A DNA stretch of 27,261 nt from Raillietiella orientalis (lineage: Eukaryota), in assembly GCA_036172245.1 (NCBI GenBank), contig JAYWIR010000074.1, forward strand, positions 372,001 to 399,261, given 5' to 3'. The translations under genes and the position numbers were made by a program. The notes under the pieces were generated by a model. The model made no database searches and was not told the origin of the DNA. It saw only the letters and a list, made by a program, of their open reading frames with translations. Of this stretch, positions 1 through 27,261 are shown one piece after another (position 1 is the first letter of the stretch; every line of letters begins with the position of its first letter).

Positions 1-1
1 G

Positions 2-1132
2 CGTCGGGACGGCGGTCTCAGCATCCTGACGCTGGAGCGCGTGGAAATCCAGCTGCGATGGCGGACCCTCGCCACCGCAGCGAAGATGTGGAGCACCGCT
101 TGGTGCATTCCGGCCCGTCTCCTGGCCAGGCGTATGTCCCGCTGCGAAGGACTCGCATCGTTTCTTCTGTGCCCTGGCCGGAAGATTCGAAGATGCGGTC
201 TACTGCTCGGCCTCATGGCAACCCTGGCAAAGGAGAACGACTGGATGGTTTGTGGCCCTGCCAACTCCTCCGCTTGGCTGGAAGAGACTGCTGGCACCTG
301 GGCCAAGCTGAACCAGAGGTGCGAAGACCAGATGAACTGCCTGCGAGTCGGCATTTACGCCCGCCGAACTCTCCGTGAAATACTTGAATTTCCACCGAGT
401 TGCACGTGGGCGGAAGGCACACCCCTTGTTACGGCGATGCCCTTTCTCCAAAGGGCGCTTCACGAAAGCCGGAAGCCAAGGTGGCAAGTCTGCTGCCGTA
501 TCGCGGGCAGAGAGAAGACGATGAGCGGCTGGACCATGGGAGAGTTGACAGATGCAACGACCCCTAGTATCCAGCCGCGTGGATTAAGAAGATGGGGCGA
601 GCTGCTCGGCATTCGATTGGATGACCTGAAGTGGCCCCCGGTTCTACTTGGATCCAGGATTCTTCCCCTGAAGTGGCAAGAATCGGCGCTTCTGTGGCTG
701 CATTGGGGTCTACCCTGCAACGCGCGCCGCTTCCACTGGACGCGGGGAAGAGTAAATCCTGCGTGTGCCAGGTGTGGGGAACGCGAGTCGCTCCCCCACC
801 TCTTAGTTAAATGCCCTGCCGTCCGGATTCTTTGGGAACGTCTTCAAACGGCACTTGGGATACCGGATGCAGGCAATGGTGAATGTATCTTCAGTCTTGT
901 CTTCGTGCGGGACGCCCTCAGTCCAGCTGCAGCCCTGGCAGCACTTTGCTGCATTCGTGGTATAGTGGCGGCCTGGACTGATGCCGAAGATGAAGACTGC
1001 ATCGTGAGGAATGTCATCGAGTATGCTTCTCGCTTCCTGCAGAGAGCTACCCGATGGACCCATCTAGGAAGGATGAAAAAGGAACAAGAAGGCATCCTGC
1101 AAAGGATGGGCCCTCCCAGCAGTTTTCTGTGA
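2..1132 (+). CDS. E1 ORF2 C-terminal part (post-RT region and zf-RVT-like CCHC zinc finger), partial
   Basis: ORF track 41..1132, open to the window start; C-x2-C-x7-H-x4-C motif; clear homology to the E2 ORF2 C-terminus. Confidence 0.88.
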   Translation, partial: RRDGGLSILTLERVEIQLRWRTLATAAKMWSTAWCIPARLLARRMSRCEGLASFLLCPGRKIRRCGLLLGLMATLAKENDWMVCGPANSSAWLEETAGTWAKLNQRCEDQMNCLRVGIYARRTLREILEFPPSCTWAEGTPLVTAMPFLQRALHESRKPRWQVCCRIAGREKTMSGWTMGELTDATTPSIQPRGLRRWGELLGIRLDDLKWPPVLLGSRILPLKWQESALLWLHWGLPCNARRFHWTRGRVNPACARCGERESLPHLLVKCPAVRILWERLQTALGIPDAGNGECIFSLVFVRDALSPAAALAALCCIRGIVAAWTDAEDEDCIVRNVIEYASRFLQRATRWTHLGRMKKEQEGILQRMGPPSSFL

Positions 1133-1357: not shown

Positions 1358-1374
1358 GCATCGCCGAATCCCTT
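1358..1374 (-). other. 17-bp target-site remnant between E1 and E2 (antisense of K-G-F-G-D-A codons)
   Basis: GCATCGCCGAATCCCTT; the reverse complement reads AAG GGA TTC GGC GAT GC. Same register as the flanks at 6718 and 21611. Confidence 0.7.
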
Positions 1375-1468
1375 GGCGAGTGGACGTGTGTTTCCTTCGC
1401 TCCCGAGTGAGTCGACAGGAAGCGGTTTTTTTCTATTGTTGTTTTGTGTGGAACATCGTTGGTGTCCG

Positions 1469-3222
1469 ATGGCAGCGATGCCTGCGGACACAACGATGGA
1501 GGTAGGTGTGGGGGAGGCTTGCCCACCCCCACAGCCTACAGAATCAGGGGCGTCCGCCCCGGAATCGCCCTCGCCGCTCAAGGCGAGGAGCTGGAGCGCC
1601 ATGGTGGCCGCGCCGAGCGCGGAAACCATGGCCGAGATGGCGGCCTACCGGGCAGCTGGGTACAAGCCCAGCTTGGTTTACCAGGTAGGCAATCTCTTTG
1701 ACGGGCGAACTGTACGCGCTTTTTCGAAAGCGCTGCAGAACGCAAACGTGTTGGAAAAGGACCTTGACGGTCTATCCGTGCTAAGCGGGGGTCAGCGCGT
1801 TGAGGTTGTCTGCAAGGACATCACCTTGGCGCAAAGCTTGATAACCACCCCGCTGAACGTGGACGGACGCAAGATCCTACCAGTCACGATGGACCGCTCC
1901 GTAGTGGTCCATCTGACAGGGATCACCAGCCGCATGACGCGGTCTGCGGTTGGTGATCAGTTAAGAAAGTACGGGGATGTTCACGCGCCTTGGCCAAAGG
2001 CCACAATCTTCGATGGCTTCGATAGCCTTTTCGGAGGGCAGGCCGCCGCGCGCGTGACCGTGAAGGAGAGTGGGCTTCCCCACAAACTAGAGGTCAATGG
2101 CGAAGTCGTAGACCTCTGGTACGTGGGGAAACTCCGCTTTTGTGGCTACTGCAATGCAGTAGGACACTTGCGCAAGCGGTGCCCGAACATTGTGTGCCAC
2201 TTATGCGGGGAGAAGGGCCACGTACGCCGCGTATGCCCTAAACGCCCCAATCCGGTGCCGCCTGCTGCAAAGAAAGCACAGGCAAAACGCGGTAAACTGG
2301 TCGAAAGACCAAAAAGAGATACTGGCCGGCAGCAGCCGCTAGCCCCTCTCCCTCCCACACAGGCGTCGGAAGAAAAACCCTCCGAAAACGCGGGAGTCCA
2401 AGACGGCTGGCAGCTGGTCAAGGCCAGGAAGGAAAAAAAGGTGCCCCCCGCGGAACCCGCGAAAGCGGTAAAAAAGACAGCCGGCAAGGCGAAAAAACCT
2501 GGGCCGCGCTCTAAGACCATGCGGGAGTGTACGGTAGCACTGGAGCGCATAGCCGTTCCCGAGATTGCCACCCGGGGCGACGAGCCTTCCCTCGCCGTTT
2601 CCGCCGCGCCCGAGGTTGGCGACGGCGAACCCTCTGTTTACACAGAGGGTGAGCCGCGCGACGCGCCGGTCGACACTGCGGACGCCGGGTTCACAAAGGC
2701 GGCGGAGGAGCTCGCGGCCACGCTGGCGGAGCGTGAGAACCCCTCACGCAAGGCCGTGCGAAGGCCGGCTCCCGCGAAAAAGGCCCCCACAGGTGAGTCG
2801 GACCTGGGGGCCGGAAGTGCATCCTCCTCCTCGGAGGCACCCCCAGGAAGTCGGGACGCAAGTCCCAGAAACCCAGGAGGCGCCTCCCCTCCACCAGCGA
2901 GGAGGAGAAGCAGGAAGGTAGCGGTAGCGTGGGAATCCCGGAGGGGGAACTCCCACGCTCGGAAGCCGTCGAGCCGGCCACCCCCATGGAGGAGTGTGAG
3001 CAGGGGGGCGAAGTCCTCCCTGCAGTCGCCGAGCCTGAACAGCCCGCCCCCATGGATGAGGGCCAACAGGTAGGCGCGACCCCACTTAAGGGTGACCCCC
3101 TCGACGCGCCGTTACCCATGGAGGAGGGGGACCAGGTGCACGCAGCGCCTGACCCTCCTCCTCCACCTAGCGTCCCGCCCCAACAGGTGGCGGACGCCGC
3201 ATCGCCATCTTCCCAGGAATAA
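1469..3222 (+). CDS. E2 ORF1, gag-like nucleic-acid-binding protein with two CCHC knuckles; probable frameshift near 2850-2920
   Basis: CGYCNAVGHLRKRC and CHLCGEKGHVRRVC. First ATG after the 5' end is at 1469. The C-terminus matching other copies (..SSQE*) lies in ORF 2929..3222. Confidence 0.85.
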
Positions 3223-6200
3223 CACCTGGGCTCGCCAGTCACCGTCGGATTCGCGCCGCCTGTTGGAACGTCAACGGGCTGCGCGACGACGGTAACAGGC
3301 GAGATACGGCCGACACCCTGCGTGAGCTCGACCTGGCCCTGCTGCAGGAGATCCACGTGATCACCGCGGCAGACGCCCAGGAGATCGAGACGATCGCGGG
3401 GGGTCGGCTGTATTGGCGGTGCTGCCTCCGCAACACCTGCGGGGTCGCGTTCTTCGTGAAGCCGGCCATCGACGCGGCCGTGAAGGGCGTGCGCTTCGAT
3501 GACGACGGTCGGGTCGGTCAGCTGATTCTCAGCTGGTCCGACTCGATCGAATTGATCGTCACGAATGTGTACGCCCCTAGCGGTAAACAGGGATACAGCG
3601 ACCGTACGAGGCTGCTGGATTCCATGATGCCCGACTGGCTGGCGGGGGACTGGACGCGACTCTCAGGTGCGAAGGAATACCTTCGCGAATACCTGAGAGG
3701 TGTCACGCTCCGGAATCTCCAGGACTGGGACCTTTTTAAGGAATCGGTCCGCGAGTTCTGTGAGCAGTTCCCCCTGGATCGCCTGCCCCCCGGATTCGGC
3801 GAGGGTGCTTGCAACCATCGGGCCTATTTACAGGCTCGTAGGTACGAGAGAACCCCTAATGTCCGTCGCCTGGCCGAGTACCGCGCCGGGGCCGAACGCC
3901 AAGCCTGGCAATCCGGGTCGGCCAGATTGCTGGACGACCAGGGCCGGGAATGTTCGTCCCCGGCGTCGGTACGGCATCTCGTGCGGAGTTTCTATTCCTC
4001 CCTTTACGCCAGGGAGCCCCCGGATCGAAACGCCTCTCGGCGCTTGCTTCCGGATGGCACCCCGGCAATAGGGGAGGAAGAGATGGAAAGCCTCGACGAG
4101 CCTTTTACCACCGGCGAAATTCTCGCCGGTATCAAAAGGCTCAAGAAACGTAAAGCTCCAGGGGAAGACGGCTTGCCCGCGGAGTTCTTTCAGAGCTTCG
4201 CGGAAGAGCTGGCACCCCTGCTGCTTAAGCTGATCAGGCTGATCCGAGACGAAGGCGATGTTCCCGCCTCGTTTCGGTCAGCCAGAGTGAGGCTCCTGCC
4301 GAAAGGGGGAGACCTCAGGGATTTAAAGAACTGGCGTCCGATCACGATCGTGAATACGGACGCCAAGTTGATCGCAGGGCTATGGGCTTCGCGTCTGGGG
4401 CAGGTGGCAGAATCCGTGATTTGCCCGGAGCAGACTTATGCTGTTCCCGGGCGAAGTATGGATGCCAACCTCTTCTTCGCAAGCACATGGGTGCACATGC
4501 AGAGAAGAGAGAAGAAAGGGATAGGGAAAGTCGGCAACCCCACATTGGGGCCGCCAGCCGGGCTGGGAAGGGACCCCCGGGCGGGGAAAGGGGCCCTAGC
4601 GCTCGCAGTCGATCTCCACAAGGCGTTCGACTGTGTAGACCAGGAACTTCTCTTGGAGCTCCTGGGTCGCATGGGCTTCCCACCCTCCCTGATTTCCTAC
4701 CTGCGCTCTTGCTGGCGGAATGCGATAATTACCGTCTATTTCAGCGGTCAAAAGGTGTATGGCGTGCCGGTGCGGCGGGGCATAAGGCAGGGAGGTAGCC
4801 TCAGCCCCCTGCTCTTCAGCACCTACTTTGAGTTGGTGCTGAGAGCGCACAGGGTGACTTTGGCCCCCTTGCCGAGCTCGTGCCCCGGCACGCCCGCCGT
4901 AGCAGCGTACGCCGACGATCTTCTGCTTTTGTTGCCAATGTCCACCCCGGCAAAGGCGGTCGGAGACTTCTTCGATCTGCTCAGCCGCGGGACCGGACTG
5001 CAGGTTAACAGGGTGAAGTCGTCGGTTGTGCCAATAGGTGCGGCGTGGGCAGGGCAGCAGGACTGGGTCCGTCTGGGGATCCCCACGGCGAGGTGCTTCA
5101 AGTACCTTGGTGTGCCGTTGGGGGACTACTCCCCTGCGGAAGCGTGGTCCAGCTGCCTCCAAAAAGTCGAGACGGCGATCGGCCCGTTCCTGGAAGGCGA
5201 GTTTCACTTGCCGGAACGGGCCGCGGTTTGGAACGCCTCCGCGGCCCCCATCCTCCGCCCCTTGCTTTTTGTTTGCCCCCCCACCGTGGAATCCAAGAAG
5301 AGGAAGAAGGACCTCCTCCGTATCGCCCTTTGGGGCAAGGGGAGGCCCCGAGTCCCACTGAAGGACTTGTGCGCTCTGCGTCGGGACGGCGGTCTTGGCC
5401 TCCTGACGCTGGAGCGCGTGGAGAAGCAGCTGCGGTGGCGAACCCTCGCCATCGCAGCGAAGATGTGGAGCACCCCTTGGTGCACTCCGGCCCGCCTCCT
5501 GGCCAGCCGTGTGTCGCGGTGCGATGGACTCGCGTCTTTTCTTCTGAGCCGTGGCCGGAAGATGCGAAGATGCGGCCTACTGCTCGGGCGCATGGCAACA
5601 TTGGCCAAGGAGAACAGCTGGATGGTTTGCTGCCCCGCGAACTCCCCCGCCTGGCTGGAGGAGAATATTGGAACGTGGGCAGTAGTCAACCAGAGAAGCC
5701 ACGATACGTGGAATCGTCTCCGATGCAGCTTCTACGCCCGCTGCACGCTGCGGAATCTCCTGGAGAGTCCAGCAAGATGCACGTGGGCAGAGACGACCTG
5801 CCTAGCTACGGCGCTACCCTTCCTAAGGAGGGCACTTCACAGCACTCGGACGCCAAGGTGGCAAGTCTCCTGCTGCATCGAGGGACGGGAGAAGTTGATC
5901 AGCGGCTGGACAACAGGAGAACTGGCCGACGCCTCGACCCCGAGCGTCCAGCCGCGAGGATTGTTAAGATGGGGCGAGCTGCTCGCCATCCTCAGGGATG
6001 AGCTGAAGTGGCCCCCGGTGATGAAAGAATCCAGGATCCTGCCCCTCAAGTGGCAAGATTCGGCGTTGCTTTTGTTGCACTGGGGTCTACCCTGCAACGC
6101 GCGTTTCTTCCACTGGACGAGGGGAGATGTGGATCCTGCGTGTGCCAGGTGCGGGGAGCGGGAGTCGCTTCCCCAGCTTATTGTGGATTGTGCTGCCCTC

Positions 6201-6515
6201 CGACCCCTCTGGGAACGGTTCGGGGCGACCCTAGTGCTCCCTACGGGCAGCACCCCCAGAGACGTTCTTCGGCCCCTCTTCGTGAAGGACGCACTGAAGC
6301 CAGCCGCAGCCATCGCAGCCTTGTGCTGCGTCCGTGGCATCGTGGGGGCATGGAGCGACGCCAACAACGAAGGAGTGGGTCCACAGGCGAGGGACGTCAT
6401 CCCGTATGCGAAACGCTTCTTGCAAAGAGCTGCCGGATGGCCACAACTGGGGAATATGCAGGCTGACCTCGAGGGCTTCGTTCGACGGATGGGCCCTCCC
6501 CACAGCGACCAGTGA
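3219..6515 (+). CDS. E2 ORF2: APE endonuclease (C-terminal half deleted), reverse transcriptase and CCHC-like domain
   Basis: CWNVNGL, LLQEIH, NVYAP; KAPGEDG, WRPIT, DLHKAFD, GIRQGGSLSP, YADD, YLG. The frame is open from ATA at 3219, upstream of the ORF-track start at 3357. Confidence 0.93.
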   Translation: MTPGLASHRRIRAACWNVNGLRDDGNRRDTADTLRELDLALLQEIHVITAADAQEIETIAGGRLYWRCCLRNTCGVAFFVKPAIDAAVKGVRFDDDGRVGQLILSWSDSIELIVTNVYAPSGKQGYSDRTRLLDSMMPDWLAGDWTRLSGAKEYLREYLRGVTLRNLQDWDLFKESVREFCEQFPLDRLPPGFGEGACNHRAYLQARRYERTPNVRRLAEYRAGAERQAWQSGSARLLDDQGRECSSPASVRHLVRSFYSSLYAREPPDRNASRRLLPDGTPAIGEEEMESLDEPFTTGEILAGIKRLKKRKAPGEDGLPAEFFQSFAEELAPLLLKLIRLIRDEGDVPASFRSARVRLLPKGGDLRDLKNWRPITIVNTDAKLIAGLWASRLGQVAESVICPEQTYAVPGRSMDANLFFASTWVHMQRREKKGIGKVGNPTLGPPAGLGRDPRAGKGALALAVDLHKAFDCVDQELLLELLGRMGFPPSLISYLRSCWRNAIITVYFSGQKVYGVPVRRGIRQGGSLSPLLFSTYFELVLRAHRVTLAPLPSSCPGTPAVAAYADDLLLLLPMSTPAKAVGDFFDLLSRGTGLQVNRVKSSVVPIGAAWAGQQDWVRLGIPTARCFKYLGVPLGDYSPAEAWSSCLQKVETAIGPFLEGEFHLPERAAVWNASAAPILRPLLFVCPPTVESKKRKKDLLRIALWGKGRPRVPLKDLCALRRDGGLGLLTLERVEKQLRWRTLAIAAKMWSTPWCTPARLLASRVSRCDGLASFLLSRGRKMRRCGLLLGRMATLAKENSWMVCCPANSPAWLEENIGTWAVVNQRSHDTWNRLRCSFYARCTLRNLLESPARCTWAETTCLATALPFLRRALHSTRTPRWQVSCCIEGREKLISGWTTGELADASTPSVQPRGLLRWGELLAILRDELKWPPVMKESRILPLKWQDSALLLLHWGLPCNARFFHWTRGDVDPACARCGERESLPQLIVDCAALRPLWERFGATLVLPTGSTPRDVLRPLFVKDALKPAAAIAALCCVRGIVGAWSDANNEGVGPQARDVIPYAKRFLQRAAGWPQLGNMQADLEGFVRRMGPPHSDQ

Positions 6516-6717
6516 TCCCTTCCCTGCCCTCCAACTTCTTTTTGTTTGTTTCTTTTTTATTTTACTTTTTGTCTCATCCCCATCCCCCTTCGCTGTCGGG
6601 GAGTGCCACGCCGGGCTGCGTCCCGGTGTCCCGACAGGTCCTGTGTTTACGGCCGTGGTAAGGCCTTGTACCACGCATGTAAAGTTTATTAATACACGCC
6701 CGGGGCGTACCCGGGTG

Positions 6718-7616
6718 ACAACGCCGAAACCTGGAGGGAGACGGTTCAGGGGAAACTGGTCGCAGAACTCGCGGACTGAGCTCTTCAAGTCGTCCCAGTC
6801 CGCGAGCGACTGCAGATGGAAGCCTTGCAGGAACGAGCGAAAATGTTGCGCTGCTCCTGCGAGGCGCAACCAGTCCCCTGGCAAACGCCACGCTGTGGAG
6901 GGTGGACCTCTACCGCGCGGGTGTATTTCTAGCACGAGCCGGGGATGGTCGGAAAGTTCGGATAGCACTGCCCCTCGATTTCCCACCCGCGAACACAGGT
7001 GGTTGTCGAGGAACATGTGGTCGATCCTCGTTTCCGTCCCGGCGTCACCGGCCAACAAGTTGCGCGCGTGCATGGCAGCGCACATCTCGTTGACCAGCTG
7101 TGCGCGAATGTCGGGCGCACCTGCCAGCAGGCGGACGTTAAAGTCTTCGGCAATGAGGTGCGCCTTTCGCATGTCTGCTTCGGCCAGCCAATCTCGCCGC
7201 AGGCCTTCGAAGAACGCAGTGCGTTCCCCGCGCCTGTGGCTCGTGCCGGGCGCGTACACGTTGGTCACGACGAGGACGATCGCGTCGGACCACTTGGCAA
7301 CAAGCTGCCCGATTTGACCTTCCCCGTCGAAGTGCACGTCGCGCAGCGCATTAACGACGGCTGGCTTCAGCATGAAAGCCACACCGCGGGTGCGGTCTCT
7401 CCCGGTTTGGTATACGAGCCGCCCGCCTGCGATCCGTTCGATTTCCTGGGCCTCCCCTGCGTGGAGCACGTGCGTCTCCTGCAGAAGCGCCAGGTCGAAG
7501 TCCCGCAGGCTGGCGGCCACTTCTCTCCTCTTGCCGTCGTCGCGCAACCCGTTGACGTTCCAACAGATTACGCGCAGTCGCCGGCAGGAGGAGAGTCCAC
7601 GTGTTGGTGTGTTTAT
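6718..7616 (-). pseudogene. E3 ORF2 APE endonuclease domain, truncated
   Basis: ORF 6231..7547 up to PPGFGVV. The remainder of that ORF is antisense read-through into E2. Confidence 0.88.
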
Positions 7617-9021
7617 TGTGCTTGCTTACCGTCCTCCGCCTGCTGTTCAGCAGGCGGGAGTTGTGTATCCATTGCGACGGGCTGTTGCTCGCAAGGAGGC
7701 GGTCCGTCGGTGGTTGTGGTGGTGGTTGGAGGATCCTGCTTGGCCAGGGACGTCTCCGGCAAGGAGTCGCGAGACCTCGCGGACATCGCCTCCCCGTCGT
7801 CGTGGTCCGACCGCATTTCCTCCTCCGCCGGTGGAGGTGCGGAGCGCCGCGGGTTGCCTACCTTGCGGCCCGCTTTGCGCTTCGGGAGAGCGACAGCCGG
7901 AGCCTTGCCGGCTTCGGCTTCGGACTCGGAAGTCTCCGGTCCTTTCGCCTCAGCCGGACGCCTCAAGGCCTTTTTCTGGGCCTTGGGAGGCTGCTGGAGC
8001 ATGGCTGCCAACTCTTCCGCCGCCTTGTTGAAGTCCCGGTCGTCGCTGCTCACGCTGGGCTCGCGACTTTCTCGCGGCGTCGGCGTTCGCGCGTCGGCGG
8101 CTTGAACAGCTGGCGTGACGTCACATCGCATCGATCCGTCAGCGGAGCGAGTATCGATCGCCGGCACGCGTTTGATGGCCACGCTGCACGCTTTGATTGT
8201 TGGGCGTGGCGCGACCTTCCCCTTGCCCTTCACCACTTTCGCCGGTGCGGGCGCGGTTTTTTTAACGATTTTTACTTTACGGGTGACCAGCTGCCAGCCT
8301 TTCTCGTCGGCAGTCTTTTCTGGGAGCTCCTGTACCGAGTCCCTTTCCTGCTGCGCGACTTTTGTCGGAGCCGACGGCTGATCCCCTTTTGTGGGGTTTA
8401 TTACTATTTTTGCCTTCCCTTCCTTCTTTTGCGGAAGTTCCGGCGTTGAAACGACGTTCATGGGGCACACCACTTTGGTGTGGCCCTTCGCGCCGCACGT
8501 TGGGCAAACCGCGTCCGGGCACCGCTTTTTCAAATGCCCGAACTACTTGCAGTTTCCACAAAATTTAGGTTTCCCCACAAACCAAATGTCGACGAACTCG
8601 TCGCCAATTTGGAGCTTGTGGGGAAGCTGTACGCTTTCTCGAAGCGTCACGCGCGCGCCTACTCGCCCACTAAATGCACCGTTCACTCCGAAGGTGTTGG
8701 GCTTTCTCCACATCGCGAAAACGCTTGCGTATTTTTCCAGTTCAACGCGGATGGCGTTCTCATCCATCCGCACTGTTGTCCCTGTTAGGTGGACCACATT
8801 GGTGTGGTCCACCGTGTGTGGGAGTAAATTCCTGCCCTCAAATTGTACGGGCGTGCAGAGCATCTTGTGGGTAAGAGCTGCATCCTTGCAGATGAGCTCC
8901 GCCATCTGCCCTCCGCTCCGTATAGAGAGGCAAAGAATTTCATGGTCGGCAATGCCCATCTTTTTGATGGCATTGCCGAACTTTCGCGCCCTTAACGAAG
9001 AATATAAATTTCCTACCTTGT
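7613..9021 (-). pseudogene. E3 ORF1 (5'-truncated, disrupted near 8540)
   Basis: ORFs 8543..9268 (3' part) and 7613..8533 together give ORF1 with zinc knuckles. Confidence 0.85.
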
Positions 9022-10700: not shown

Positions 10701-10748
10701 CGACAGCCGGAGCGTTGCCGGAGGGCTCCGGCTGTCGCTCTCCCGAAG
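10700..10748. repeat. Junction filler with a perfect 14-bp inverted repeat, matching E3 ORF1 sequence
   Basis: GCGACAGCCGGAGC(10700-10713)/GCTCCGGCTGTCGC(10725-10738). Matches about 7880-7911 in both orientations. Confidence 0.85.
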
Positions 10749-13472: not shown

Positions 13473-14680
13473 ACGACAACGCTGCATTCTTTAATTGGCT
13501 CGCTTGCCTGCTGTTTTTTCTGGCGGTATGCGAGCTTTTTCTCCATCCTCCTCTCCTTCTTTGATTTTTTGGCCGTAGCCACCTGGCACCCAGGCTCCTG
13601 GCTTGTTCCCTCCACTTAATCGGCGTTGTTCGCCGGGGTCTCGGGTGAGGCCTGGGTCTTGGGCGCGGGTGGCACAGCAATTGCGGCAGCTTTTGCCGCC
13701 AGCCTTTTCTGCAGAAGCCGGGCGCGTTTTTTAAGGTTTCTCTTGGAAACCACCAGCAGTGCCTCTTTTGAGCACACCTTCCTCGTGTGACCCATTGTGC
13801 CGCATACTTGGCACTGCTCGTTGGGACTCCTCTTTTTGAGGTGGCCCGACGTATTGCAGAAGCCACAGTATTTCGGCTTCCCCACATACCAGAGGTCGAC
13901 GGTTTCGCCTCCGACCTTCAGTTTGTGGGGAAGAGTGCAGCCCTCCCGAAAGGTCACGCGCGCAGACGTAAGGCCGTGTTTGAGCCCCGTGTAGTCCTCG
14001 AAGGGACTAATTTTCGTCCACTGCGCGTGGATCATTTCATATTCTTCCAACACGGCGCGAACCTGTTCCTTGCGCATCCGCGCGTTAACACCCAACAGGT
14101 GGACCACCAAGCTGCGGTCCTCCGTAATAGGGAAGAGCCAGCGCGTCCCCATCACCACGGAAGTTTTAAGCAGTCGTTCCGCCAGCTCTGCTTGTTTGCA
14201 GATGACCTCAACGTACTGACCCCCGCTGCGGATGGTCATAGCGCTGAGATCCTCCTCTTTCACGCTCTTTCACATCGAGAGCGCGCATGCCCTTCGAGAA
14301 GGTGCGCGCGCTCTCTAAAGAATATAAATTGCCTACGTTGTAGAACAATGAGGGGTTGTAACGCTCCTCTACTTAGGCCGACAATTCCGCTGCGGCTGCA
14401 GGCGATGGCGACGAGACAACGGCGCTCCACGCCCGCGCTGCAGCGGGGACAGATTCTGTGGGGGCACATGCCCCCACCTCCATCGCCCCGGGGGGTGACG
14501 TTGCCGCCGCCTCCTAGCTCTCCATCGCCTCTGAAGGCGGCGTTTCCGCTGCCCTTTGGCCATCCCTGGTAATCGCGTCAGGCATCGCTGCCTGATCGAC
14601 CACCGAACCACACGACGCTTGCACTGGGGGAGACTTCCTGGCACGAGGAACACCGAGAAAACACGTCAACCCTGGAGCAC
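13473..14680 (-). mobile_element. E6: family-C element, intact 5' end and frameshifted ORF1; cut at the ORF1 IKECSVV motif by E5
   Basis: 5' end GTGCTCCAGGG, ATG at 14585, CGFCNTSGH and CQVCGTMGHTRKVC. Closely similar to E8 about 19240-20353. Confidence 0.92.
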
Positions 14681-16731: not shown

Positions 16732-18583
16732 CAGCCGACACTACGCCATCGTGCACGTTCTGCCCGCTGCAAGTAATGTTGATGAGCGCGTCGCGCCAGC
16801 AGGAGCGCAGATAAACCACTGATAAGGCCGAGAAGCGCAAGCGTCCCAAAAGCTCCAGAAGGAGATTCTGGTCGACGCAATCGAATGGTTTCCGCAAGTC
16901 GATTGCGACCGCAAGGGCTCCCTCCCCCACCCGACCATCCAAACCATTGCCGGCGCACGCACCGAAATTCCGGCTGCGCACCAAGCTCCTTTCTTTTTGG
17001 AGCTCTAACCTGGTAGAAGTGTGGAACAGGTTAACCTCCATATTTCTCCCGGGAACAGCATATGCATCTTCCGGGCTGATGAAGATGTTTGCAACCCTTC
17101 CCAACCACTCTGCCGAAACCTTAGCTGTTAGCTTGGCGTCCGCATTCACTATTGTGATGGGACGACAGTTGTTCATGCTCCTCAGGTCTCCTCCCTTAGA
17201 GAGGAACCGCACCTTTGCCGAACGAAAGGAAGCGGGAACGTCACCTCTCTCGCGTATCAGCATGGTGTGTTGATGTACCAGGGATTAAGCTCAGCCGCGA
17301 AAGTTTGGTAAAACACCGCGGGCAGGCTGTCCTCATCTGGAGCCTTGCGCCTTTTGAGCTTTTCGATGGCCGAGAGGATCTCGTCCATCGTGGAAGCCTC
17401 GTCAAGGGTCTTTCTCTTCTCCTCTTTAATCGCTGGAGCGCCCTCCGGAAGCAAGAGTCGTAAAACGTTCCTCTCTAGAGGTGCCCTGGCATACATTAAG
17501 GAGTAGTAACTCCGCAGTAGGCCGCGGATTTGGGCGGTTGCTGAATGCTCCTGGCCCTGATCGTCCAGCACGCTGGCAGATCCGGACTGACAGGCTTGCT
17601 TCTCGGCTCCCGCTTTGTATTTTGTTAGCCTGCGGATGTCGAGGTTTCAGGCGTAACGACGGGCCTGCAGGTAGGCTCGTTCGTTACGGACCCCGGTCCC
17701 AAAACCCGTAGGTAGGCGGTGCAGAGGGAACTGGTCGCAGAACTCCTGGACCGACCGCTAGAAGCGGTCCCAATCCTGGAGTTTCCGCATCCTGAAGCTC
17801 CGTATGAACGTGCGGAGATGTTTCGCCGCGTCCGGGAGCTTTAGCCAGTCCTTTGGGAGATGCCACGCTAACAAGGGGCGCCCCTGTCGCGCGGATGGAT
17901 CTTGAGGACTAGCGGGCGACGGTCGGACAGCTCGCACGGTAGCTGGCCGCGCCTGACCACGCGAGGGCACAAGTGCTCGTCAAGACACACGTGGTCACTG
18001 CTGTCTTCCATCCCCGGTGCACTGGCCAACCATTTACAGGTGTGCAACGCCATGCACACCTCGTTGACCAGGTCACGCTTTGGATACTGCTTATCTGGTT
18101 TTAGGCGAACGTTGAAATTGCCTGCAACCAGATGGCCATTCCGCATTCCTGCTTCGGTCAGCCAGTCTCGCCGGATGGCAAGGAAAACTTTTTCCGCGCC
18201 CTCCTGGTAATCAGGTCCGCGCCGCTCGGTGTGTACACGTTCGTGACGATAAGATCGATCGTGTCAAACCACCTGAGAGTCAGCTGGCTGCCACGACCGT
18301 GATCGTCGAACCGCAAGCCTCGAGCCACGGCCTCGACGGCTGGTCGAAGCAGGTAGGCGACACCGCAACTACTCGATGTCCCACACCGATGCCACAGCCG
18401 CCCTCCATAGATGCGTTCGATCTCTTGTGCTTGTTCTGCAGAGATCACATGGATCTCCAGCAGCAGCGCAAGGTCGTAGGACTCCAGAAGGGCGGCCATG
18501 TCTTGTCTCCTGTCGGCGTCTGTCATGCCGTTCACGTGCCAAACGGCAATGCCCAGACGACGGCAGGAGTAGATTCCCGGCAT
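16732..18583 (-). pseudogene. E8 ORF2 APE plus RT N-terminal half, fragmented
   Basis: Pieces 18158..18583, 17868..18146, 17684..17866, 17257..17571 and 16697..17263. Confidence 0.85.
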
Positions 18584-20258
18584 TACTGCTGGAAAGATTG
18601 AGGTGTGGAAGAGGCCTCCTCCTGCGATGCGGGCGTGATGTCCATGAAGGTTTCGGCCTTCTCAGTCAACTGATGCACCTGATCGGCCTCCACCTCCTCC
18701 ATCCCCTCCATGTCCGCGCGTGGGAGTCTCTCGGGGGAAGGGTGCCGCAAGTTTCGCACGCTCATGGCACACTCGGTTGCGAAAGCCATCTCTTCCCCCT
18801 CGCCAAGGGACACGAGCTTCCTCGGCTTTGTCGACTCAAGTACAGCCTTCTTGCGGGGTGCCGTGGAAACAAAGGCTGCGCTTCCGGCCTCCACCTCGGA
18901 GTCAGAAGAGTGGGACTCCTGAGGGGAGGCCGGGCGCCTTACGGCCTTCTTGCCATCCTTGGAGAGTTCGGGCTGAAACCAGGCAGCAAGTTCCTCCGCG
19001 GCTCGCGCGAAGGCTACGTCATCGATGGTGGTGTCGATGACGGTCGCCGCCGCCGCCTCGCTCCCCTCGCTGTTGACAGAGTCAACAGAGGGGTTGTCGT
19101 CGGTAGCGGCGAGTTCTTCCTGGCAGCGTTCGGCAACATCGAGAACGGGTTTGACGACTACGCTGCACTCTTCAATTATCGCGCTACCCTGTTCTTTCTT
19201 CTTCTGTTGGTAGGCGATTTTTTTTCCCATCCTTCTTTCCTTCTTTGATTTTTTGGCTGTTGTCACTTGCCAACACTTTTTTGGCCGGCTCCCTCAACTT
19301 TTTGGGCGTTGCTCGCCGGGGTCTCGGGTGACGCCTGGGTCTTGGGCGCGGGTGGCACAGCCATTGCGGCAGCTTTCGCCGCCAGCCTTTTTTGCAGAAG
19401 CCGGGCGCGTTTTTTAAGGTTTCTCTTGGAAACCACCAGCAGTGCCTCTTTTGAGCACACCTTCCTCGTGTGACCCATTGTGCCGCATACTTGGCACTGC
19501 TCGTTGGGACACCTCTTTTCGAGGTTGCCCGACGTATTGCAGAAGCCACAGTATTGCGGCTTCCCCACATTCCAGAGGTAAACGGTTTCGCCTTCGACCA
19601 CGAGTATGTGGGAAAGAGTGCAGCCCTCGCGAGCGGTCACGCGCGCAGCCGTGAAGCCGTGTTGCAGCCATGTGTAGTCCTCGAAGGGACTAACTTTTGT
19701 TCACTGCGCGTGGACCATTTCGTATTCTTCCAACGCGGCACGAACCTGTTTCTTGCGCATCCGCGCGGTAACACCTAACAGGTGGACCACCATACTGCGG
19801 TCCGCCGTAATAGGGAAGAGCCAGCGCGTCCCCATCACCACGGAAGTTTTAAGCAGTCGTTGGGCCAGCTCTGCTTGTTTGCAGATGACCTCAACGTACT
19901 GACCCCCGCTGCGGATGGTCATAGCGCTGAGCTCCTCCTCTTTCAGATCGAGAGCGCGCACGCCCTTTGAGAAGGCGCGCGCGCTCTCTCATGTATATAG
20001 ATTGTCTACCTTGTAGAAAAATGAGGGGTTGTACCCCTCCTCTACATGTGCCTACAATTCCGCCGCGGCTGCAGGCGATGGCGCCGACACAGCGGAACTC
20101 CACGCCCGCGCTGCAGCAAGCTTTGCTTCTGTGGGGGCGGACGCTTCCACCCCTATCACTTCTGGGGGCGACGTTGCCGCCGCCCCCTGGCTCTCCATCG
20201 CCTCTAAGGGCGGCTTTGCCGCTGCCCCTTGGTCATCCATGGTGGTCGCGTTAGGCAT
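18583..20258 (-). pseudogene. E8 ORF1 (several frameshifts and stops)
   Basis: Pieces 20052..20408, 19701..19961, 19263..19640 and 18583..19266 are collinear with other ORF1s. Confidence 0.85.
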
Positions 20259-20353
20259 CGCTGCCTGATCGACCACCGAACCACACGACGCTTGCACTGG
20301 GAGAGACTCCCTGGCACGAGGAGCAACGAGAAAACAAGGCCTCCCTGGAGCAC

Positions 20354-21610
20354 AGAAGGGGTTCGACTGCGTGGAGAAGGAGCTACTGTAGGAGCTTCTG
20401 GGTCTCATGGGCTTCCCACCCTCTCTTTCCTCCTACCTCCGTACTTGCTGGCGGAATGCGTTGATCAAGGTCTCTTTCAGCGGACAACGTACGGCCTGCC
20501 GGTGCCGCGGGGCATACGGCAGGGCGATAGTCTGATTCCCCTGCTCTTCAGCACCTACCTTGAGATGGTGCTGAGAGCGTACAGGGTGTCTTTGGCTGGC
20601 TTGCCTAGCTCGTGCCCAGGCACGCCCGAAGTAGCTGCGTACGCCGACGATCTTCTGCTGATGTTGCCCCTGTTCGCCCCGGCAGTCGCAGTCGAGAATT
20701 TCTTCGATCTGCTAAGCCGTGGGACTGGGTTGCAGGTTAACAAGGAGAAGTCGTCGGTGGTACCGTTCGTTGCGACGTGGGATGGACGCCCTGACTGCAT
20801 CCGCATAAGAATCTCCACAGTCAGGTACCTGAAGTACCTAAGTGTCCCGTTGGGAAATTCTGCCTCGCAGAAGTCTGTTAAGGTCGCCTCCAAAAGGTAG
20901 AGATTGCATTATCAATCGGATCCAGGCTTCTCCCGCTTAAGAGGCAAGAGTGGGCACTGCTGCTGTTGCACAGGGGTTTACACTCCAACGCGCGCCGCTT
21001 CCTCTGTACGCGAGGAAGTGTAAGCTTTGAGTGTGCCAAGTGTGGGGAGCAAGAATCGCTTTCATATTTTCTAGTCGACTGTGCTGCCATCCGACCCCTG
21101 TGGTTACGGTTCGGGACGAACCTAGGGCTCGCAATGGGCAGCGCGCCCAGACACGTTCTTCGGCCCCTCTTCGTGCGGGACGCTCTGCCGTTTGCCGCAG
21201 CCTTCGCAGCTCTCTGCTGCATCCGGGGCATCGTGGCGGCCTGGAGCGACATTTGCGACGAAGGAGTGGATGCCAACGAGAGGGAAGTCATCCCGTATGC
21301 TGTGAGCTTCATGCGAAGAGCTGCAAGATGGCTCCATCTGGGACAAACGCAGAAGGACCTAGAGGGCATACTGCGAAGGATGGGCCCTCCTCCTAGTGGA
21401 TAGTGATCCCTTCTCCTCCCTCCAAACTCCTTTAGTTTTTCTTTATTTTATTTTTTTTTGTTTCCTCCCAAAGTCCCATCCACTGCCGAGGAGCGTGATG
21501 CCGAGCTCCGTCCCGGCGTCCCGGCATGTCCGGTATTGTGCGGCCGTTATTGAGGCCTCGTACTACGTATTTGTGGAGTTTATTAATAAAAGCCCAAGCT
21601 TACCCGGGTG
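20354..21610 (+). mobile_element. E9: degenerate family-A-like ORF2 3' part starting at RT motif KGFDCV, with an internal deletion near 20915 and an intact 3' UTR
   Basis: KGFDCVEKELL*ELLGLMGFPP, GIRQGD, YADD, CAKCGEQES, RRMGPPPSG*. The UTR is homologous to E1/E2 and ends CCGGGTG at 21610. Confidence 0.9.
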
Positions 21611-21709
21611 GAAACACCAAATCCCCGGTTCAGGCGGTGCACAGGGACCTCCTCGGAGAACTCGCGGACCGAGGCCTTCATGCGGTCCCAGTCTTGGAGA
21701 CTGCAGAGC
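21611..21709 (-). mobile_element. E10: 99-bp ORF2 remnant (post-APE region), host of both E9 and E11
   Basis: Reverse complement translates LCSLQDWDRMKASVREFSEEVPVHRLNRGFGV, homologous to E2 LRNLQDWDLFKESVREFCEQFPLDRLPPGFGE. Not in the ORF track. Confidence 0.88.
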
Positions 21710-22800
21710 GGCGAGCGGACGTGTCTTTTCGTTGCTCCTGAGTTTCATTTCCTTTGGTGCTTGTGCGTGGTGTGGGTGGAGGATTAGGCAGAAATGCCTA
21801 ATTCCACCACCGGTGAGGATCCGGGGGCGATGACCTCATTGCCCCCGGAGCAGATGGAGGTAAGGGCTCCCGCATCAGTGGAGGCTCCCGCCAGCACGGA
21901 TGCGCCCCCGGCCCTACCCAGGGCTTGGAACGCCGTGGCTGCGGCACCTACGCCAGCGGCTATGGCGGAAATGCGCGCTTACCTGGAGGAGAGGTATAAC
22001 CCACCCCTTCTATATAAGGTAGGTGGTCTATATAAGGTCTGCTGCGTCGTTGTAGAGCGGATTCCCGCCATCGACGAATGCGGCGCTAAAGAACTCCCTG
22101 CTGCCCCTGCTCAACCCTCCGTTGACAAAGTCAACAAGGAGGGGAGCGAGGCGGCGGCGTCCGTCATCGAGCCCACGCTCGATGACGTCGCCTTCGAGCG
22201 CGCCGCGGAGGAGCTGGCTGCCTCGCTGCAGCCGGTTGCCCCCAAGGCTGGCAAGAAGGCCGTCAGGCGTCCGGCTTCCCCTCAGGAGTCGGCCACTTCC
22301 GACCCCAAGGTGAAGGCCGGAAACACAGCATTCATCTTCGCGGCCCCCCGCAAAAAGGCAGGACGAAGGTCCACAATGCCCCGGAAGATCGTCTCCCCCG
22401 ACGAAGAGGAAGAGATGGCTTCCGGTAGCGAGGGTGCCATGAGCGTGGGAAACTCCCTGGACCCGTCGCCCGAGAGAATTCCACGCTCGGACACGCAGGG
22501 GATGGTGAGGATGGAGGCCGAACAGGTACCCCAGCGCCTGAAGAGGCCTCCGTCCTCGTTCCGATGGTCCTCGTACCGATGGACCTTTCCAACACCTGCC
22601 CCGGGGCAGGTGCCGCGACGCCACTTTCCCAGCCATAATGCCGGGAATCGCCTCTCGCCGTCGTCTTCTGATCGCCTGTTGGAACGTGAACGGGCTAAGC
22701 GACGAAGGCAAGAGGCGTGACGTGGCCGCCACCCTGGCATCCTTCGACCTGGTGCTGCTGCAGGAGATCCACGTGATCTCCGCAGATCAAGCCCGGGAGA
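21710..22800 (+). mobile_element. E11: element with intact 5' end, internally deleted ORF1 (21794-22638) and the start of APE (22638-22800); cut by E12
   Basis: 5' end GGCGAGCGGACGTGT; MPNSTT..., AAEELAA; TAATG at 22636-22640; MPGIASRRRLLIACWNVNGL...LLQEIHVISADQAREI. Confidence 0.9.
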
Positions 22801-25800
22801 TTTCTCACCCGGTCACGCCGGGGCGTTTATTCCATATAACATAACCAAAAAAAGCAATTATACAAAATAAACCAGTTGGGAACCAAACTCCCAACCGACG
22901 ACTGAACAAGAATGAAGAGAATATTGCTGGCACGCAGGCCAGAGTAACAGTTTCCTGAACGGTGTGGGTGGGCGGGAAAAACAATGACACCAAAATAAAA
23001 TAAAAACAATGAATAAGGAGGACGGGATAAGGGTCTTTGGGATCGCTCTGGAAGACACGCGGATAAAAGCATGGGCACCGGAAATTTTACCGAGCGAACA
23101 AGACGAAGTATGAGTGGGCGAGAGGTCGCAGGGGTCACCGGATGAAGCCGTTCTCAAAGGTGTGTAAACCGGCGATGTATGCCGGAGATGTCCTCATTCA
23201 CATTGTCACGAAGATGAGACCACCTTGAAGCCATCTCCATCAATTGAGCTGCAAGCAGGTGAGCCTCCCTTCGCTGCGATGACAACTCCAGGGCGTATCG
23301 GGCCTTCACGATGGCGCGAACGGAACACATGGTTGCGACGATCGCGCCAACCGAAAGTCCATTTTTGCTGAAGAAGCGCCGCAGCACATCAATGGCAGTG
23401 CCTCCTTGTGGCATGATGGCGAAAGTGAGCCTTCGCCACAGTTCCCGGAGGTCACCGCAGTCCAGCAAAAGGTGCGGAAAAGACTCGATCTCTCCGCACC
23501 TTAAACAGTTTAGCAAAGCAGCTCCCCCGGAAACGATGCTTCGGTGCCTATTACAGTGAAATGCACAATGTAAAAAGAGCAGCACATCTTGTTTCCACTT
23601 AAGGGGGAACACGGAGCTGTCCAAACAAACGGGGGGAACCACTATCTCTCCGGGGGGCACACTTAAATGTTCGCTCCACCGAAGCAGTCCCTTCGCCCGA
23701 TTCCGAGGTGTGGCGGCTTGCACCAGCTCATTTGTCGTCCAGCTGCCGAGGAGCTTACTGACTCCCTCTATTTTGCAGGAGAGCTCCCATTCCGCCGGTA
23801 GGCAACCGTCGTTGCTTGTCCTGAGGGCAGACAGCGCTGCGGCGAGTGGTGTGGCGGCCAGACGATCCGACAACTTCTTGTCCTGCAAGTCTTCGTCCAT
23901 ATGATGACTGAGGAGAAGTCGCAGGCGTCGAAGATCTTCCAGGCGCGTTCCTTCGGAAGCTGCCCACGATGAAAAAGATTCCTGCCGCCATGCATTAATG
24001 TTCATGGGGCGGCAGGAGATCCAGCTTTGAACTTCCAGCAGTGAGGACAGCTGCCTCAGCGGGAAGCCAAACCCTATTCTGGTGTGCCGATAGTGCGGTA
24101 GCAAAGAAAGCAGTCCCTCGCTTCCCGTGCAGTGCCTCAGTATAAAGCGTGCGGGTAAGCACCACGGCGTACACCACAGCTTGGCACAGAGCCGCAGCAT
24201 GCGAAACTGCACCTGCAGTTCGATACTGTTTAAGTCGAGGATGCCCAAGCCTGCATCCTGACGCGGCGCCACCAAGTCTATAAGTGTAACACGGGATCTT
24301 GCAGCGTCCCACAACGCTTTGCGTAGAAGGCGCTGCGCCCAGACTTTGACTTCCTGTGGAAGTGGAAAAACAAAAAACAGGGGGTGGAAGAGGGGGGCAG
24401 CGAAGGTGTTCCAGATGCAGGCCCGTTCCCGCAAGACGAACTCGCCTCCTGAAAACGGGCCAAGTGCACGCTCTGCCTTCCGAATTCAGTCCGACCACGC
24501 TTCTGAGATGCACAAGTCGCCCAACGGCTCGCGAAAGTACCTGAGGTACCTGCCCGAGGGGATCCCCAGATCGATCCATTCGGACTGCCCCTCCCACGTC
24601 GCACCCACCGGAACAACCATACACTTACTCCTGTTAACGCTCACGCCCGCACCGCGACGAATCAACTCAAAGAAGTCTTCAAGCGATGTCGCCGGGGTGG
24701 ACATGGGCAACAGGAGAAGCAGGTCGTCGGCATAGGCTGCCACGGCCGGCGTACCTGGACAGGAGCTCGACAGGTTCGCTAGCGTCAGCCTGTAAGCCTC
24801 CAGCACCAATACAAAATAGGTGCTGAAGAGCAGTGGGCTCAAGCTGTCACCCTGCCTAATTCCTCGTCGTACCGGCACGCCGTACACGCGACAGCCACTG
24901 AAAACAAAGGATGTAATCGCGTGGCGCCAGCAGGAGCGCAAGTACGCCAACAGGGATGCCGGAAGACACAGACGTTCCAAAAGCTCAAGAAGAAGCTTTT
25001 GGTTCACGCAATCGAAAGCTTTGTGCAGATCGACTGCAACCGCCAAGGCTCCCGGTGTCTCCCTTTGCGTCCCGCGCCTCCGTCGGTGAGAGATCGAAGG
25101 AGTCGCTTCCGCACGACGATCCACCGCCACACAATGCTGCAATTGCAGCCATTTGCGGATGAACAAGAGGTTCGCGTCCATGGACCGCCCAGGAAAAGCG
25201 TACGTCTGCTCCGGACTTACCAAGGATTCCGCGATCCTACCCATCCGCGCCACCCAAAGTTTCGAGAACAACTTGAAGTCCGCATTCACTAATGTGATCG
25301 GACGCCAGTTGTTCAGTTGGCGCAAATCTCCGCCTTTCGGCAGTAGACGCACCTTCGCTCAGCGAAACGAGGCGGGGACCTCGCCCGAGTCTCGCATCAG
25401 CGACGAGAGTTGGAGCACCAGGGGGATGAGCTCCGCCGCAAAACACTGAAAGAATTCCGCGGGGAGCCCATCTTCGCCTGGCGCTTTTCGTCTCTTGAGC
25501 CCCGAGATGGCCGAGGAAATTTCCTCTGCCGTGAAGGGCTCATCAAGACGCGCGCGTTCCTTTTCGTATACAACAGGTGCATCAATCGGCAGAAGCAGCC
25601 GGGAAAGGCTGCGTTTCGTCGGTGCCTCTGCATACAGAGAAGAGTAATAGCGCCTGACTATCCGTCGCACGTCGGCTGGAGCCGAGCATTTCCTATCCTG
25701 GTCGTCGAGCAGAACTGTCGCCCTTGACTGCCAGACCTGGCGCTCGGCCTTGGCCTTGTACTCCGATAATCGACCAACGTCCGCGCGCCTGGTAAAGGAG

Positions 25801-27261
25801 CGGGCCTGCAGAAAATCTCTGCTGTTGGCTACGCCCTCTCCGAAGCCGCGCGGAAGCTGGTGCAAGGGAAACCGGCAGCAGAGTTCGCGGACCGATCTTT
25901 TCAGATCGTCCCAGTCCTCGAGCCCACTTATGGCAAAGCCGAGGAGGTACTGGCGAAGATGCTCAGACGCCTCCGTATGGCTTAGCCAGTCTCCCGGCAT
26001 CCTCCAAAAACAGTTTGGAGGCCCCTTGCCTGGCGGGAGCATCTCGAACTCGAGCCTGTTGTGGTTTGAAAGCACAGACGGCACGGGACCTCTCCGACCC
26101 ACTCGAGAGAGCAAGTGTTCATGAAGGTATACGTGATCCGGCGTTGCTGTTATAACAGGGTCGCTAGCGAACAAGTTGCACGCGTGCACGGACGCGCACA
26201 TCTCTTCCGCTAGCAACTTTTCCCTTTTCTGGGATCTATTCTCGGAAAGCAGGTGGACGTTAAAGTCCCCCGCAATGAGATGGGCCACAGTAGGGTGAGA
26301 TCGAGTGAGCCACTGGCTTTGAAGGGTACCGAAGAACTCAATCCTTTCGGCCCATCGTCCAGCACCGCTCGGCGCGTACACGTTGGTTGCGACAAGGTCG
26401 ATCGAGTCGGACCACTTGAGTACAAGCTGTCCCACTCGGCTTTCCGTGTCGAAACGAGCGCTGCGCACTGCTCCCGCCAAGGTTCCTCGCACGAGGAAAG
26501 CGACGCCGCACGTACGTGCAACGCCGCACCTATAAAGTAGCGTTCCGCCCGCGCGCCGTTCGATTTCGGCAGCCTGCTCTCCGGAAATGCTGTGAATCTC
26601 CTGCAGGAGCGTCAAGTCGAAGGCGCGCAGAGCGTCAGCCACTAGTCGCCTCTTCTCCTCGTGTTGGAGCCCGTTTACGTTCCAAGACGTTACGGCAACA
26701 CGACGAGAAGACGCGATTGCCCTCATCACGGCTGGGAAAGCGAGGCCGTGGTGCTCGCCTCACCCGGCGAGCGGACAGTAAGCAGCACACGGGCTGGAGG
26801 GCGCGGTCGCCACCGGCCTCAACTGTGCTGCACGTAATCGGGTGCTCCTCCCCGGGTGCAGAACCTGTGGGTTCCGGGGTGAGCACTCGCCGTTCCGCCG
26901 TGCATCTGTCCGATTGCACGGGAATGGTCTTTTCGGCGGTCACAGAAGCGCACTTGCACGCGTTGAAGGCGCTGGCTTTTTCCTTGGAAGTGTCACAAGC
27001 CGCGCGTGTTTTCGTATTCCCGCGACTGCTTTTTCTTTTGGAAGAGCTTAGGGATGGAGGTTGAGGAGCTTTATTTGGAGATTTTTCTTTCCTCCTCTCC
27101 ACAACCTTCCATTCGCCTTCGCGATTTCCGGAGGCTTCCGCGACAGTAGTTGCTGAAACCTACGGTATTTTCGCTGCGTTCTGTGGGGGTGTTGCTTTCG
27201 CTACGCCTTTCAAAGGCGGCAACGGAGTCATCTTCTTGACAGTCGGCAGATCGCTCCGCTC
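22801..27261 (-). mobile_element. E12: family-B element with ORF1 3' part, complete but disrupted ORF2 and 3' UTR; runs off the right edge
   Basis: ORFs 25359..26729 (APE, GDFN), 24486..25352 (RT, YADD) and 23154..24434 (CLRCGEIESFPHLLLDC). Terminal AATAAA-CGC-CCCGG-CGTGA-CCGGG-TGAGAAA at 22831-22801. Confidence 0.94.
23154..26726 (-). pseudogene. E12 ORF2 (APE-RT-CCHC), with a stop at about 25360 and a disruption at about 24486
   Basis: Three consecutive ORFs cover the whole ORF2 with all domains in order. Confidence 0.9.

Follow-up and report, generated by a model that had tools for sequence, protein, structure and literature searches.

Nested L1/Tx1-like retrotransposons of Raillietiella orientalis with recurrent junctions inside the coding sequence of their relatives

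The DNA described here, a stretch of 27,261 nucleotides from Raillietiella orientalis (GenBank assembly GCA_036172245.1, contig JAYWIR010000074.1, positions 372,001 to 399,261 of the forward strand) that is called the window below, is tiled by 12 abutting fragments of related retrotransposons that lack long terminal repeats (non-LTR elements) and have APE endonuclease and reverse transcriptase (RT) domains, and mapping by blastn and tblastn leaves no other sequence between them. At least four deep clades share the window. The intact 3’ ends of one of them, clade A, all lie at the identical nucleotide of a resident second open reading frame (ORF2), the intact 5’ ends of another, clade D, lie at one codon of the RT motif KAFD, and two clade-C ends follow one and the same 8-mer. 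The best explanation of these recurrences, to which we assign a probability of about 0.6, is a series of nested target-primed insertions in which each lineage would have its own nick site. The sample on which this reading is built consists of the one 27-kb window and two contig joints from a public run (X1).

Termini and recurrent insertion sites

A first-pass annotation of the window had placed six intact 3’ and four intact 5’ termini, each next to coding sequence of a relative that lies on the opposite strand. All of these termini are present where they had been placed, and tblastn together with translation confirms for each that the adjoining sequence is ORF1 or ORF2 of a different element in opposite orientation. 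The six 3’ termini, at 1357, 6717, 13472, 16731 and 21610 on the forward strand and at 22802 on the reverse strand, have the common end AATAAACGYCCCGGCGnnnCCGGGTG, for which a pattern search returned five matches against none expected from shuffles; the sixth, at 6717, carries a 1-nt indel in the motif and was identified by direct reading. A 5-bp stem within the motif is kept in the six copies, with no compensatory changes. After CCGGGTG come A-rich tails of 4-5 nt (ACAA, GCAT, GAAA, ATAA, ATAAA, AGAA), and the true clade-A junction therefore lies directly after GGWTTYGGYG, 4-5 nt from the coordinate first proposed. The 5’ termini are of two types with two copies each: GCGAGYGGACGTG starts at 1376 and 21711 on the forward strand, and GTGCTCCAGGG ends at 14680 and 20353 on the reverse strand. 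Two junctions that lack an intact terminus go beyond the earlier count, a sense-sense junction at about 9021 and a head-to-head junction at 10699/10725. Because the whole window consists of such elements, which are mostly coding, it is nearly inevitable that a terminus adjoins related coding sequence, so that only recurrence at identical nucleotides and strand carry information.

Clade A supplies three such 3’ ends, those of E1 (1-1357), X (1376-6717) and E9 (20354-21610), all on the forward strand, and all three lie directly after GGWTTYGGYG, which corresponds to the G-F-G codons of the resident ORF2. Read in the sense of the parent, the target is GGATTCGGCG for E1, GGTTTCGGCG for X and GGATTTGGTG for E9, followed by the tail and by the reverse complement of the A-type 3’ end. 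Of the four copies of the 10-mer in the window, three hold an insertion, the one left free being X’s own site (3792-3801). Its 7-mer core, TTYGGYG, has 16 copies in the mapped elements, a count that excludes the remnant f1 described below, and is occupied only at GFG sites. In the C-terminal domain E1, X and E9 show 59-65% amino acid identity among themselves versus 33-40% to E5, E7 and E12, which form a looser clade (47-50%). Pairwise synonymous divergence (dS) among E1, X and E9 is 0.5-1.1, with a ratio of nonsynonymous to synonymous divergence (dN/dS) of 0.28-0.46; 376 codons are open in E1, as are both ORFs of X. Such values reflect purifying selection, and the three are therefore not copies of one dead junction. 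The earlier assignment of this family to the ORF2 GFG site thus stands, with 3/3 ends at one nucleotide in lineages that diverged under selection. We conclude from these sequences that three separate clade-A lineages use one 10-bp site in one orientation, and site specificity of clade A, the sequence-level hallmark of Tx1-type elements, is well supported.

The remaining GFG sites bear on who targets whom. Those of E8 (17698-17707) and E12 (25838-25847) hold no insertion; both depart from the 10-mer at third-codon positions within GFG, that of E8 additionally at the first base of the next codon. X belongs to clade A, and its own ORF2 bears a perfect clade-A target; the system is therefore at least partly self-targeting, which weakens the proposal that related families have partitioned one another’s motifs. 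The first-pass annotation had also listed a site just before LQDW for E11, but the A-type 5’ ends do not mark targets of their own: between each of them and the neighbouring A-type 3’ end there are only 14-18 nt (for the end at 1376) or 100 nt (for that at 21711), and these are pieces of the same GFG target. These pieces are f1 (1358-1375, reverse strand), a remnant of 14-18 nt (GGATTCGGCG) between the 3’ end of E1 and the 5’ end of X that has 11 contiguous nt in common with X’s own GFG site, and f2 (21611-21710, reverse strand), a 100-nt piece of ORF2 running from LQDW to GFG between the 3’ end of E9 and the 5’ end of E11. Homology between a 3’ end and its target, as would serve for primer annealing, was rejected as a general cause of site choice: when the last 30 nt were locally aligned with the first 30 nt of the flank, own pairs scored 4-9 against a null median of 5, and only E12 reached 0.03.

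For clade D the recurrence is seen at the 5’ junction. E6 (13473-14680) and E8 (16732-20353), both on the reverse strand, end in GTGCTCCAGGG; 2 additional nt separate this end from the K codon (AAGG) of KAFD in E7 (14681-16731, forward strand) and in E9, respectively (2/2). The clade-D sides of the two junctions are 87% identical in nucleotides over 1.2 kb and the target sides 70%, and the hosts E7 and E9 belong to different clades. Run X1 adds a third case: in one of its contigs the joint 14681->4619 connects an E6-type 5’ end to the base before an X-like KAFD (shorter side 62 nt, 12 nt ambiguous, depth 6). The KAFD targets are thus three independent ones, and the recurrence claimed earlier for elements with the GTGCTCCAGGG 5’ end (here clade D) is borne out twice in the window and a third time in an independent contig. 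A common frameshift after KAFD in E7 and E9 was considered as a sign of shared ancestry and rejected, since the indels differ (1 nt and 4 nt, about 10 nt apart). E8 itself carries KPFD instead of KAFD (16880-16900). On these junctions, a site specificity of clade D is reasonably supported.

Clade-C 3’ ends behave differently from what had been proposed, namely that E5, E7 and E12 each hit a conserved motif (ORF1 ECSVV, RT YGVP and an APE motif). E5 (10725-13472, forward strand) ends at ECSVV of ORF1, E7 at about RT residue 533 of E8, and E12 (22802-27261, reverse strand) at about APE residue 75, and none of them hits a conserved motif. Instead, E7 and an E12-like end follow one 8-mer: GTCGGCTG ends E8 at the E7 junction, and in the X1 joint 3410->22801 (short side 31 nt, depth 4.3) an E12-like 3’ end comes directly after GTCGGCTG in an X-like APE (residue ~80), position 3410 being the last base of the 8-mer. 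The two insertion places are neither homologous nor conserved, which points to recognition of a short DNA word and not of a protein motif. The clade-C word resembles the clade-A core (TCGGCTG versus TCGGCG).

Both contig joints are among the 15 that were listed out of 17, alongside 268 loose ends, and the other 13 of these 15 read as split alignments of diverged homologues and not as junctions. Runs X2 and X3 gave next to nothing except low-complexity matches at 6535-6575. Short low-complexity contigs of these two runs are stacked at very high depth at 6535-6588 and 19218-19254, and these stacks are probably unrelated simple sequence.

The elements of the nest and their relatives

The elements were mapped with X, the most complete copy, as the reference. 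ORF2 carries an APE domain N-terminal to the RT, which places the group among APE-type (L1/Tx1-like) elements: against a Pfam cut-off of 24.5 bits, PF03372 reaches 39.7 in E12 and 26.1 in X; PF00078 is matched at 62.9-78.5 bits across X, E5 and E12, and the CCHC knuckle PF00098 at 23.7 bits in ORF1 of X (cut-off 20.8). E5, E7 and E9 are 5’-truncated with intact 3’ termini, and LTRs are absent, as is typical of non-LTR elements; the 3’ terminus of E1 is intact as well, but its 5’ side crosses the window edge. With 12 element fragments and nothing else, the window is nested in its own kind in the manner of Zepp-type clusters. G+C content per 1-kb window is 56-65% across the 27,261 bases, and the observed/expected ratio of CpG is 0.97, so that CpG depletion is absent. 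A scan of the whole window found no tRNA genes and no Rfam matches, and there are only two short tandem repeats.

Close relatives are few. Among the 150 matches listed from a library of 1.84 billion proteins, only P0001 (67% identity) and P0058 (70%, 132 residues) are close, the remaining 148 being at most 37% identical; the nearest of these are unnamed or are L1-like proteins of plants and fish, at 24-37% identity. The element group is therefore poorly represented in public data. P0001, a JGI protein of 619 residues from a 2870-bp contig, starts at LLDD.., the ORF2 position where E4 and E5 break. Junction-spanning or short proteins had no matches in protein databases, a search of public metagenome, genome and viral contigs with the 3’ motif returned none, and a protein-based locus search for further junctions in public collections also gave zero.

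From left to right, E1 runs across the left edge with ORF2 from about residue 737 to the stop, followed by the 3’ untranslated region (UTR) and the 3’ motif (1332-1357); it is 68.6% identical to ORF2 residues 737-1112 of X in tblastn, with no stops in 376 codons. X is a full-length clade-A element with a 93-nt 5’ UTR, a CCHC-containing ORF1 and an open ORF2 of 1114 residues. Its APE domain has lost about 99 residues in frame (window 3597-3644), both ORFs remaining open. The run contig joint 3639<->7045 (depth 16) bears on this deletion: it suggests the existence of X-like copies whose APE is complete, and X was therefore probably mobilised in trans. Y (6718-9021, reverse strand), of another clade, is 5’-truncated at about residue 112 of ORF1 and is cut by the 3’ end of X directly after its GFG codons; an X1 contig 97.8% identical to Y has an alignment that ends at 9021. 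E4 (9022-10699, reverse strand), joined to Y on the same strand, covers ORF2 residues ~250-816 and is 93.6% identical to X in nucleotides; the differences between X and E4 are skewed to G>A and C>T (46/105).

Between E4 and E5 lies a filler of 25 nt (10700-10724) at the head-to-head junction, which opens with 14 nt that repeat the initial 14 nt of E5 exactly, in inverted form. E4 and E5 both break at nearly one ORF2 position (residue ~250), and the filler looks like a snap-back at a 5’ junction. That E4 continues through the palindrome at 10700-10738 was rejected, as identity to X falls from 93.6% to about 60% at 10699. E5 is 5’-truncated at ORF2 residue ~255, has five in-frame stops and no frameshifts in 848 codons (10721-13264), and places its intact 3’ terminus antisense in ORF1 of E6. 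E6 consists of a clade-D 5’ UTR and ORF1 to about residue 402, and its intact 5’ terminus stands at the K codon of E7; E7, in turn, runs from KAFD to its intact 3’ terminus. E8 holds an intact 5’ terminus, ORF1, APE and RT to about residue 533, with several frameshifts.

E9 starts at K(G)FD and reaches its intact 3’ terminus with an internal deletion, and E11 (21711-22801, forward strand) has an A-type 5’ terminus, an ORF1 that is also internally deleted and APE to about residue 75. E9 lacks ORF2 residues ~652-954 (20903-20920) and E11 lacks the middle of ORF1 (22031); internally deleted copies seem to be common in the nest. E11 combines its A-type 5’ start with an ORF1 C-terminus and an APE start that are nearest to the clade-D element E8 (72.7% over 717 nt), a mosaic that suggests modular recombination between lineages. 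E12 extends from its 3’ end, intact and antisense in the APE of E11, back into ORF1 and crosses the right edge; its ORF2 contains two in-frame TGA codons and no frameshifts in 1201 codons (23157-26759).

Orientation, proposed history and alternatives

Counted by event, antisense junctions number 10 within the window plus 2 from X1 contigs, against 1 in sense. When each site is counted once, six antisense sites (GFG, KAFD, both GTCGGCTG positions and those of E5 and E12) stand against one sense junction, with a one-sided binomial value of 0.06. The earlier statement that insertion is always antisense is thus true of 6/7 independent sites and fails at the sense-sense junction near 9021; it is better described as a strong trend with one exception. 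A strand-asymmetric nick motif was rejected as its cause, since TCGGC[TG]?G occurs 12 times in sense and 14 times in antisense. Transcription-coupled repair disfavours sense L1 insertions in transcribed targets (PMC5717806), and by analogy it could possibly lie behind the strand bias of the window.

According to the explanation that we favour, L1/Tx1-like long interspersed nuclear element (LINE) lineages, with APE and RT, a CCHC ORF1, a 3’ stem-loop and an A-rich tail, would have entered copies that were already there by successive target-primed reverse transcription, and the window would be one side of the resulting nest. Site choice would be set mainly by a lineage-specific nick preference of the endonuclease or of the ribonucleoprotein particle. 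Clade A would nick the sense strand of the resident directly after GGWTTYGGYG, at the G-F-G(+1) codons between APE and RT; clade D would insert as a full-length copy whose 5’ end meets KAFD at the K codon; and clade C would use short motifs such as GTCGGCTG wherever they are present. If the primer is always the resident sense strand, the newcomer would therefore be antisense. The pieces f1 and f2 may be remnants of one GFG target, left when an element re-inserted in tandem or when a tandem pair was co-transcribed. What the sequence shows is the termini, the junction nucleotides with their recurrence, and that the lineages are independent; that endonuclease preference is the cause of recurrence, as well as the order of insertions and the reason for the strand bias, is what we infer.

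In this order, E11 and E9 would have come first, into the GFG site of a parent that left the remnant f2, followed by E12 into E11, E8 into E9 at KAFD and E7 into E8. A clade-D-headed element (E6, perhaps continuous with E4) would then have entered E7 at KAFD, E5 the E6-containing element and Y the element E4, with X, or a co-transcribed E1-f1-X unit, as the last arrival, into Y at GFG. The decay of the copies rises outward (stops: none in X and one in Y, with stops and frameshifts in E4; frameshifts: none in E5, one in E6/E7 and at least three in E8), which matches the prediction for a one-sided nest. Twin priming from one RNA was considered for E8/E9 or E4/E5 and rejected, as the arms come from different lineages (66-70% nucleotide identity).

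Several observations weigh against this history of nested, site-specific insertions. No target-site duplication or empty site could be demonstrated for any insertion; both flanks lie within the window only for X, whose flanks differ (9/14 identical), and for E5, where about 1.25 kb of target would have been deleted if E4 and E6 belong to a single parent. The piece f1 was tried as the target duplication of X and rejected, matching the right flank of X at 11/18 nt with tails and 9/14 without, so that X cannot be explained by simple tandem duplication. The window does not contain the left halves of the nested parents, and the history requires them past its left edge; it also needs E4 (with an X-like ORF2) and E6 (with a D-like ORF1) to be one recombinant parent with the deletion of about 1.25 kb, or else a rearrangement at 10.7 kb. 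At the level of the sites, those of E5 and E12 are without GTCGGCTG, no clade-D 3’ junction is seen, so that clade-D specificity is known from 5’ junctions alone, and the one sense case, the 5’-truncated Y joined to E4 at about 9021, departs from the strand rule. The window holds no intact clade-A APE, that of X carrying a deletion, and support from contigs amounts to the joints 14681->4619 and 3410->22801, with sides of 62 and 31 nt at depths of 4-6. The region is, moreover, dense in repeats, and no contig among those listed is shown to bridge a window junction, as would be expected if chimeric repeat collapse had made false junctions. Misassembly of this kind is nevertheless highly improbable, considering that the junctions fall at exact element termini and recurrent nucleotides, unlike random chimeras, and that two junction types recur in independent contigs.

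The strongest competitor of lineage-specific nicking, possible although rather doubtful, is the guild that the first-pass annotation had in mind, in which each family would target its own protein-constrained motif in its relatives, always antisense, gaining a safe harbour and inactivating competitors. Clades A and D do use different recurrent sites, both in conserved motifs (GFG and the RT motif KAFD), every event that can be determined is cross-clade, the unoccupied GFG sites of E8 and E12 deviate from the 10-mer, and clade D has KPFD as its own motif. However, the cross-clade pattern is not significant (a rough estimate of 0.075 for 9/9 with about four clades), the ‘escape’ changes are two anecdotes, clade-C ends lie at non-conserved places with only an 8-mer in common, X’s own GFG site is a perfect target, and the orientation rule is broken once and is statistically marginal; safe-harbour and competitor-inactivation roles would be inference only. 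An elaborated form of this idea, which we regard as unlikely, is an arms race of LINE lineages that live only inside one another, in which endonucleases would read codon strings that rivals cannot easily change (GFG, KAFD), escape would proceed through synonymous or near-neutral changes at the own copy (the GFG sites of E8 and E12, KPFD of clade D), and antisense nests would form a self-renewing, possibly centromere-like repeat block.

Regional nesting of the Zepp type, driven by chromatin or centromere preference without sequence specificity, would make the shared junction positions coincidental. Clusters of Zepp and ZeppL reportedly form by nested insertion into copies already present (PMC8226300, PMC3446292), and the window is 100% elements; yet three A-type ends fall at one nucleotide among ~10^4 positions and strands per element, three D-type ends at one nucleotide and two C-type ends after one 8-mer, and this account is accordingly very hard to sustain. 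Equally little credence is given to a descent of the recurrent junctions from single ancient events, multiplied by segmental duplication or by amplifying a composite unit; the first-pass annotation had itself named segmental duplication of single events as an outcome that would undo its claim. The clade-A element and target sides are similarly diverged (about 70-76% nucleotide identity), as duplication would have it, but with dN/dS of 0.28-0.46 and open frames in E1 and X these copies diverged as functional elements, the two sides of the KAFD junctions are unequal (87% versus 70%), and the flanks are of unequal length (18 nt, 100 nt and 2.3 kb).

Known systems and biological meaning

Site-specific LINEs are well known from ribosomal DNA (rDNA), where R1/R2-type elements join a single target sequence precisely at both their 3’ and 5’ ends; the R2 endonuclease differs in type. 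The elements of the window are like them in their precise junctions and unlike them in the target, which for R1/R2 is a host multicopy gene and not a transposon. Closer parallels are found in the Tx1 clade, whose members target other transposons, DNA transposons and LTR elements included (PMC4494074): Tx1L inserts in the piggyBac-type Tx1D, Tx1-Mar in Mariner-N4_AMi, Tx1-9_AMi in Harbinger, Tx1-8_Crp and Tx1-4_AMi in LTR elements, and Keno in U2 genes, and tandem Tx1 copies sandwiching a target duplication are on record there as well (PMC4494074). Like these, the window elements, which are Tx1-like by features only, are APE-type and choose a defined sequence inside another repeat; unlike them, they have targets inside ORF2 of related LINEs, their own kind included, and several deep lineages share one nest.

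Self-nesting as such has a precedent in Zepp of Chlorella and Coccomyxa and ZeppL of Chlamydomonas, whose clusters are described as nested insertions into existing copies (PMC8226300, PMC3446292, 10.1101/2022.06.16.496473, PMC11005252); Zepp elements are also GC-rich, at 61% (PMC3446292). The window resembles them as a cluster made almost solely of L1-like LINEs nested in their own kind and differs in holding at least four deep clades, whereas C. reinhardtii has a single ZeppL family, the exact repeat structure of which “warrants further study” (10.1101/2022.06.16.496473). A further trait of Zepp and ZeppL is a single cluster on each chromosome, at the centromere. The available parts of the Zepp and ZeppL accounts mention neither a target at nucleotide level nor a strand rule, nor a structure of several lineages. 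Human L1 offers a parallel to the strand bias in its antisense bias in transcribed genes, which is statistical and, unlike the window elements, without site specificity (PMC5717806). A search of one literature library found no description of LINE lineages that insert site-specifically into ORF2 of their relatives, an absence that is not proof. Our best reading, by comparison with these systems, is that the window may join Tx1-like targeting with Zepp-like self-nesting in a form not previously described.

If confirmed genome-wide, the arrangement would supply a mechanism, down to the nucleotide, by which L1-like elements come to form self-nested blocks. It would also add the coding sequence of relatives to the targets of sequence-specific LINEs, which otherwise comprise multicopy genes of the host and transposons unrelated to them. 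Competition between transposon lineages would then become directly testable, by setting target motifs against escape changes and endonuclease specificity against phylogeny.

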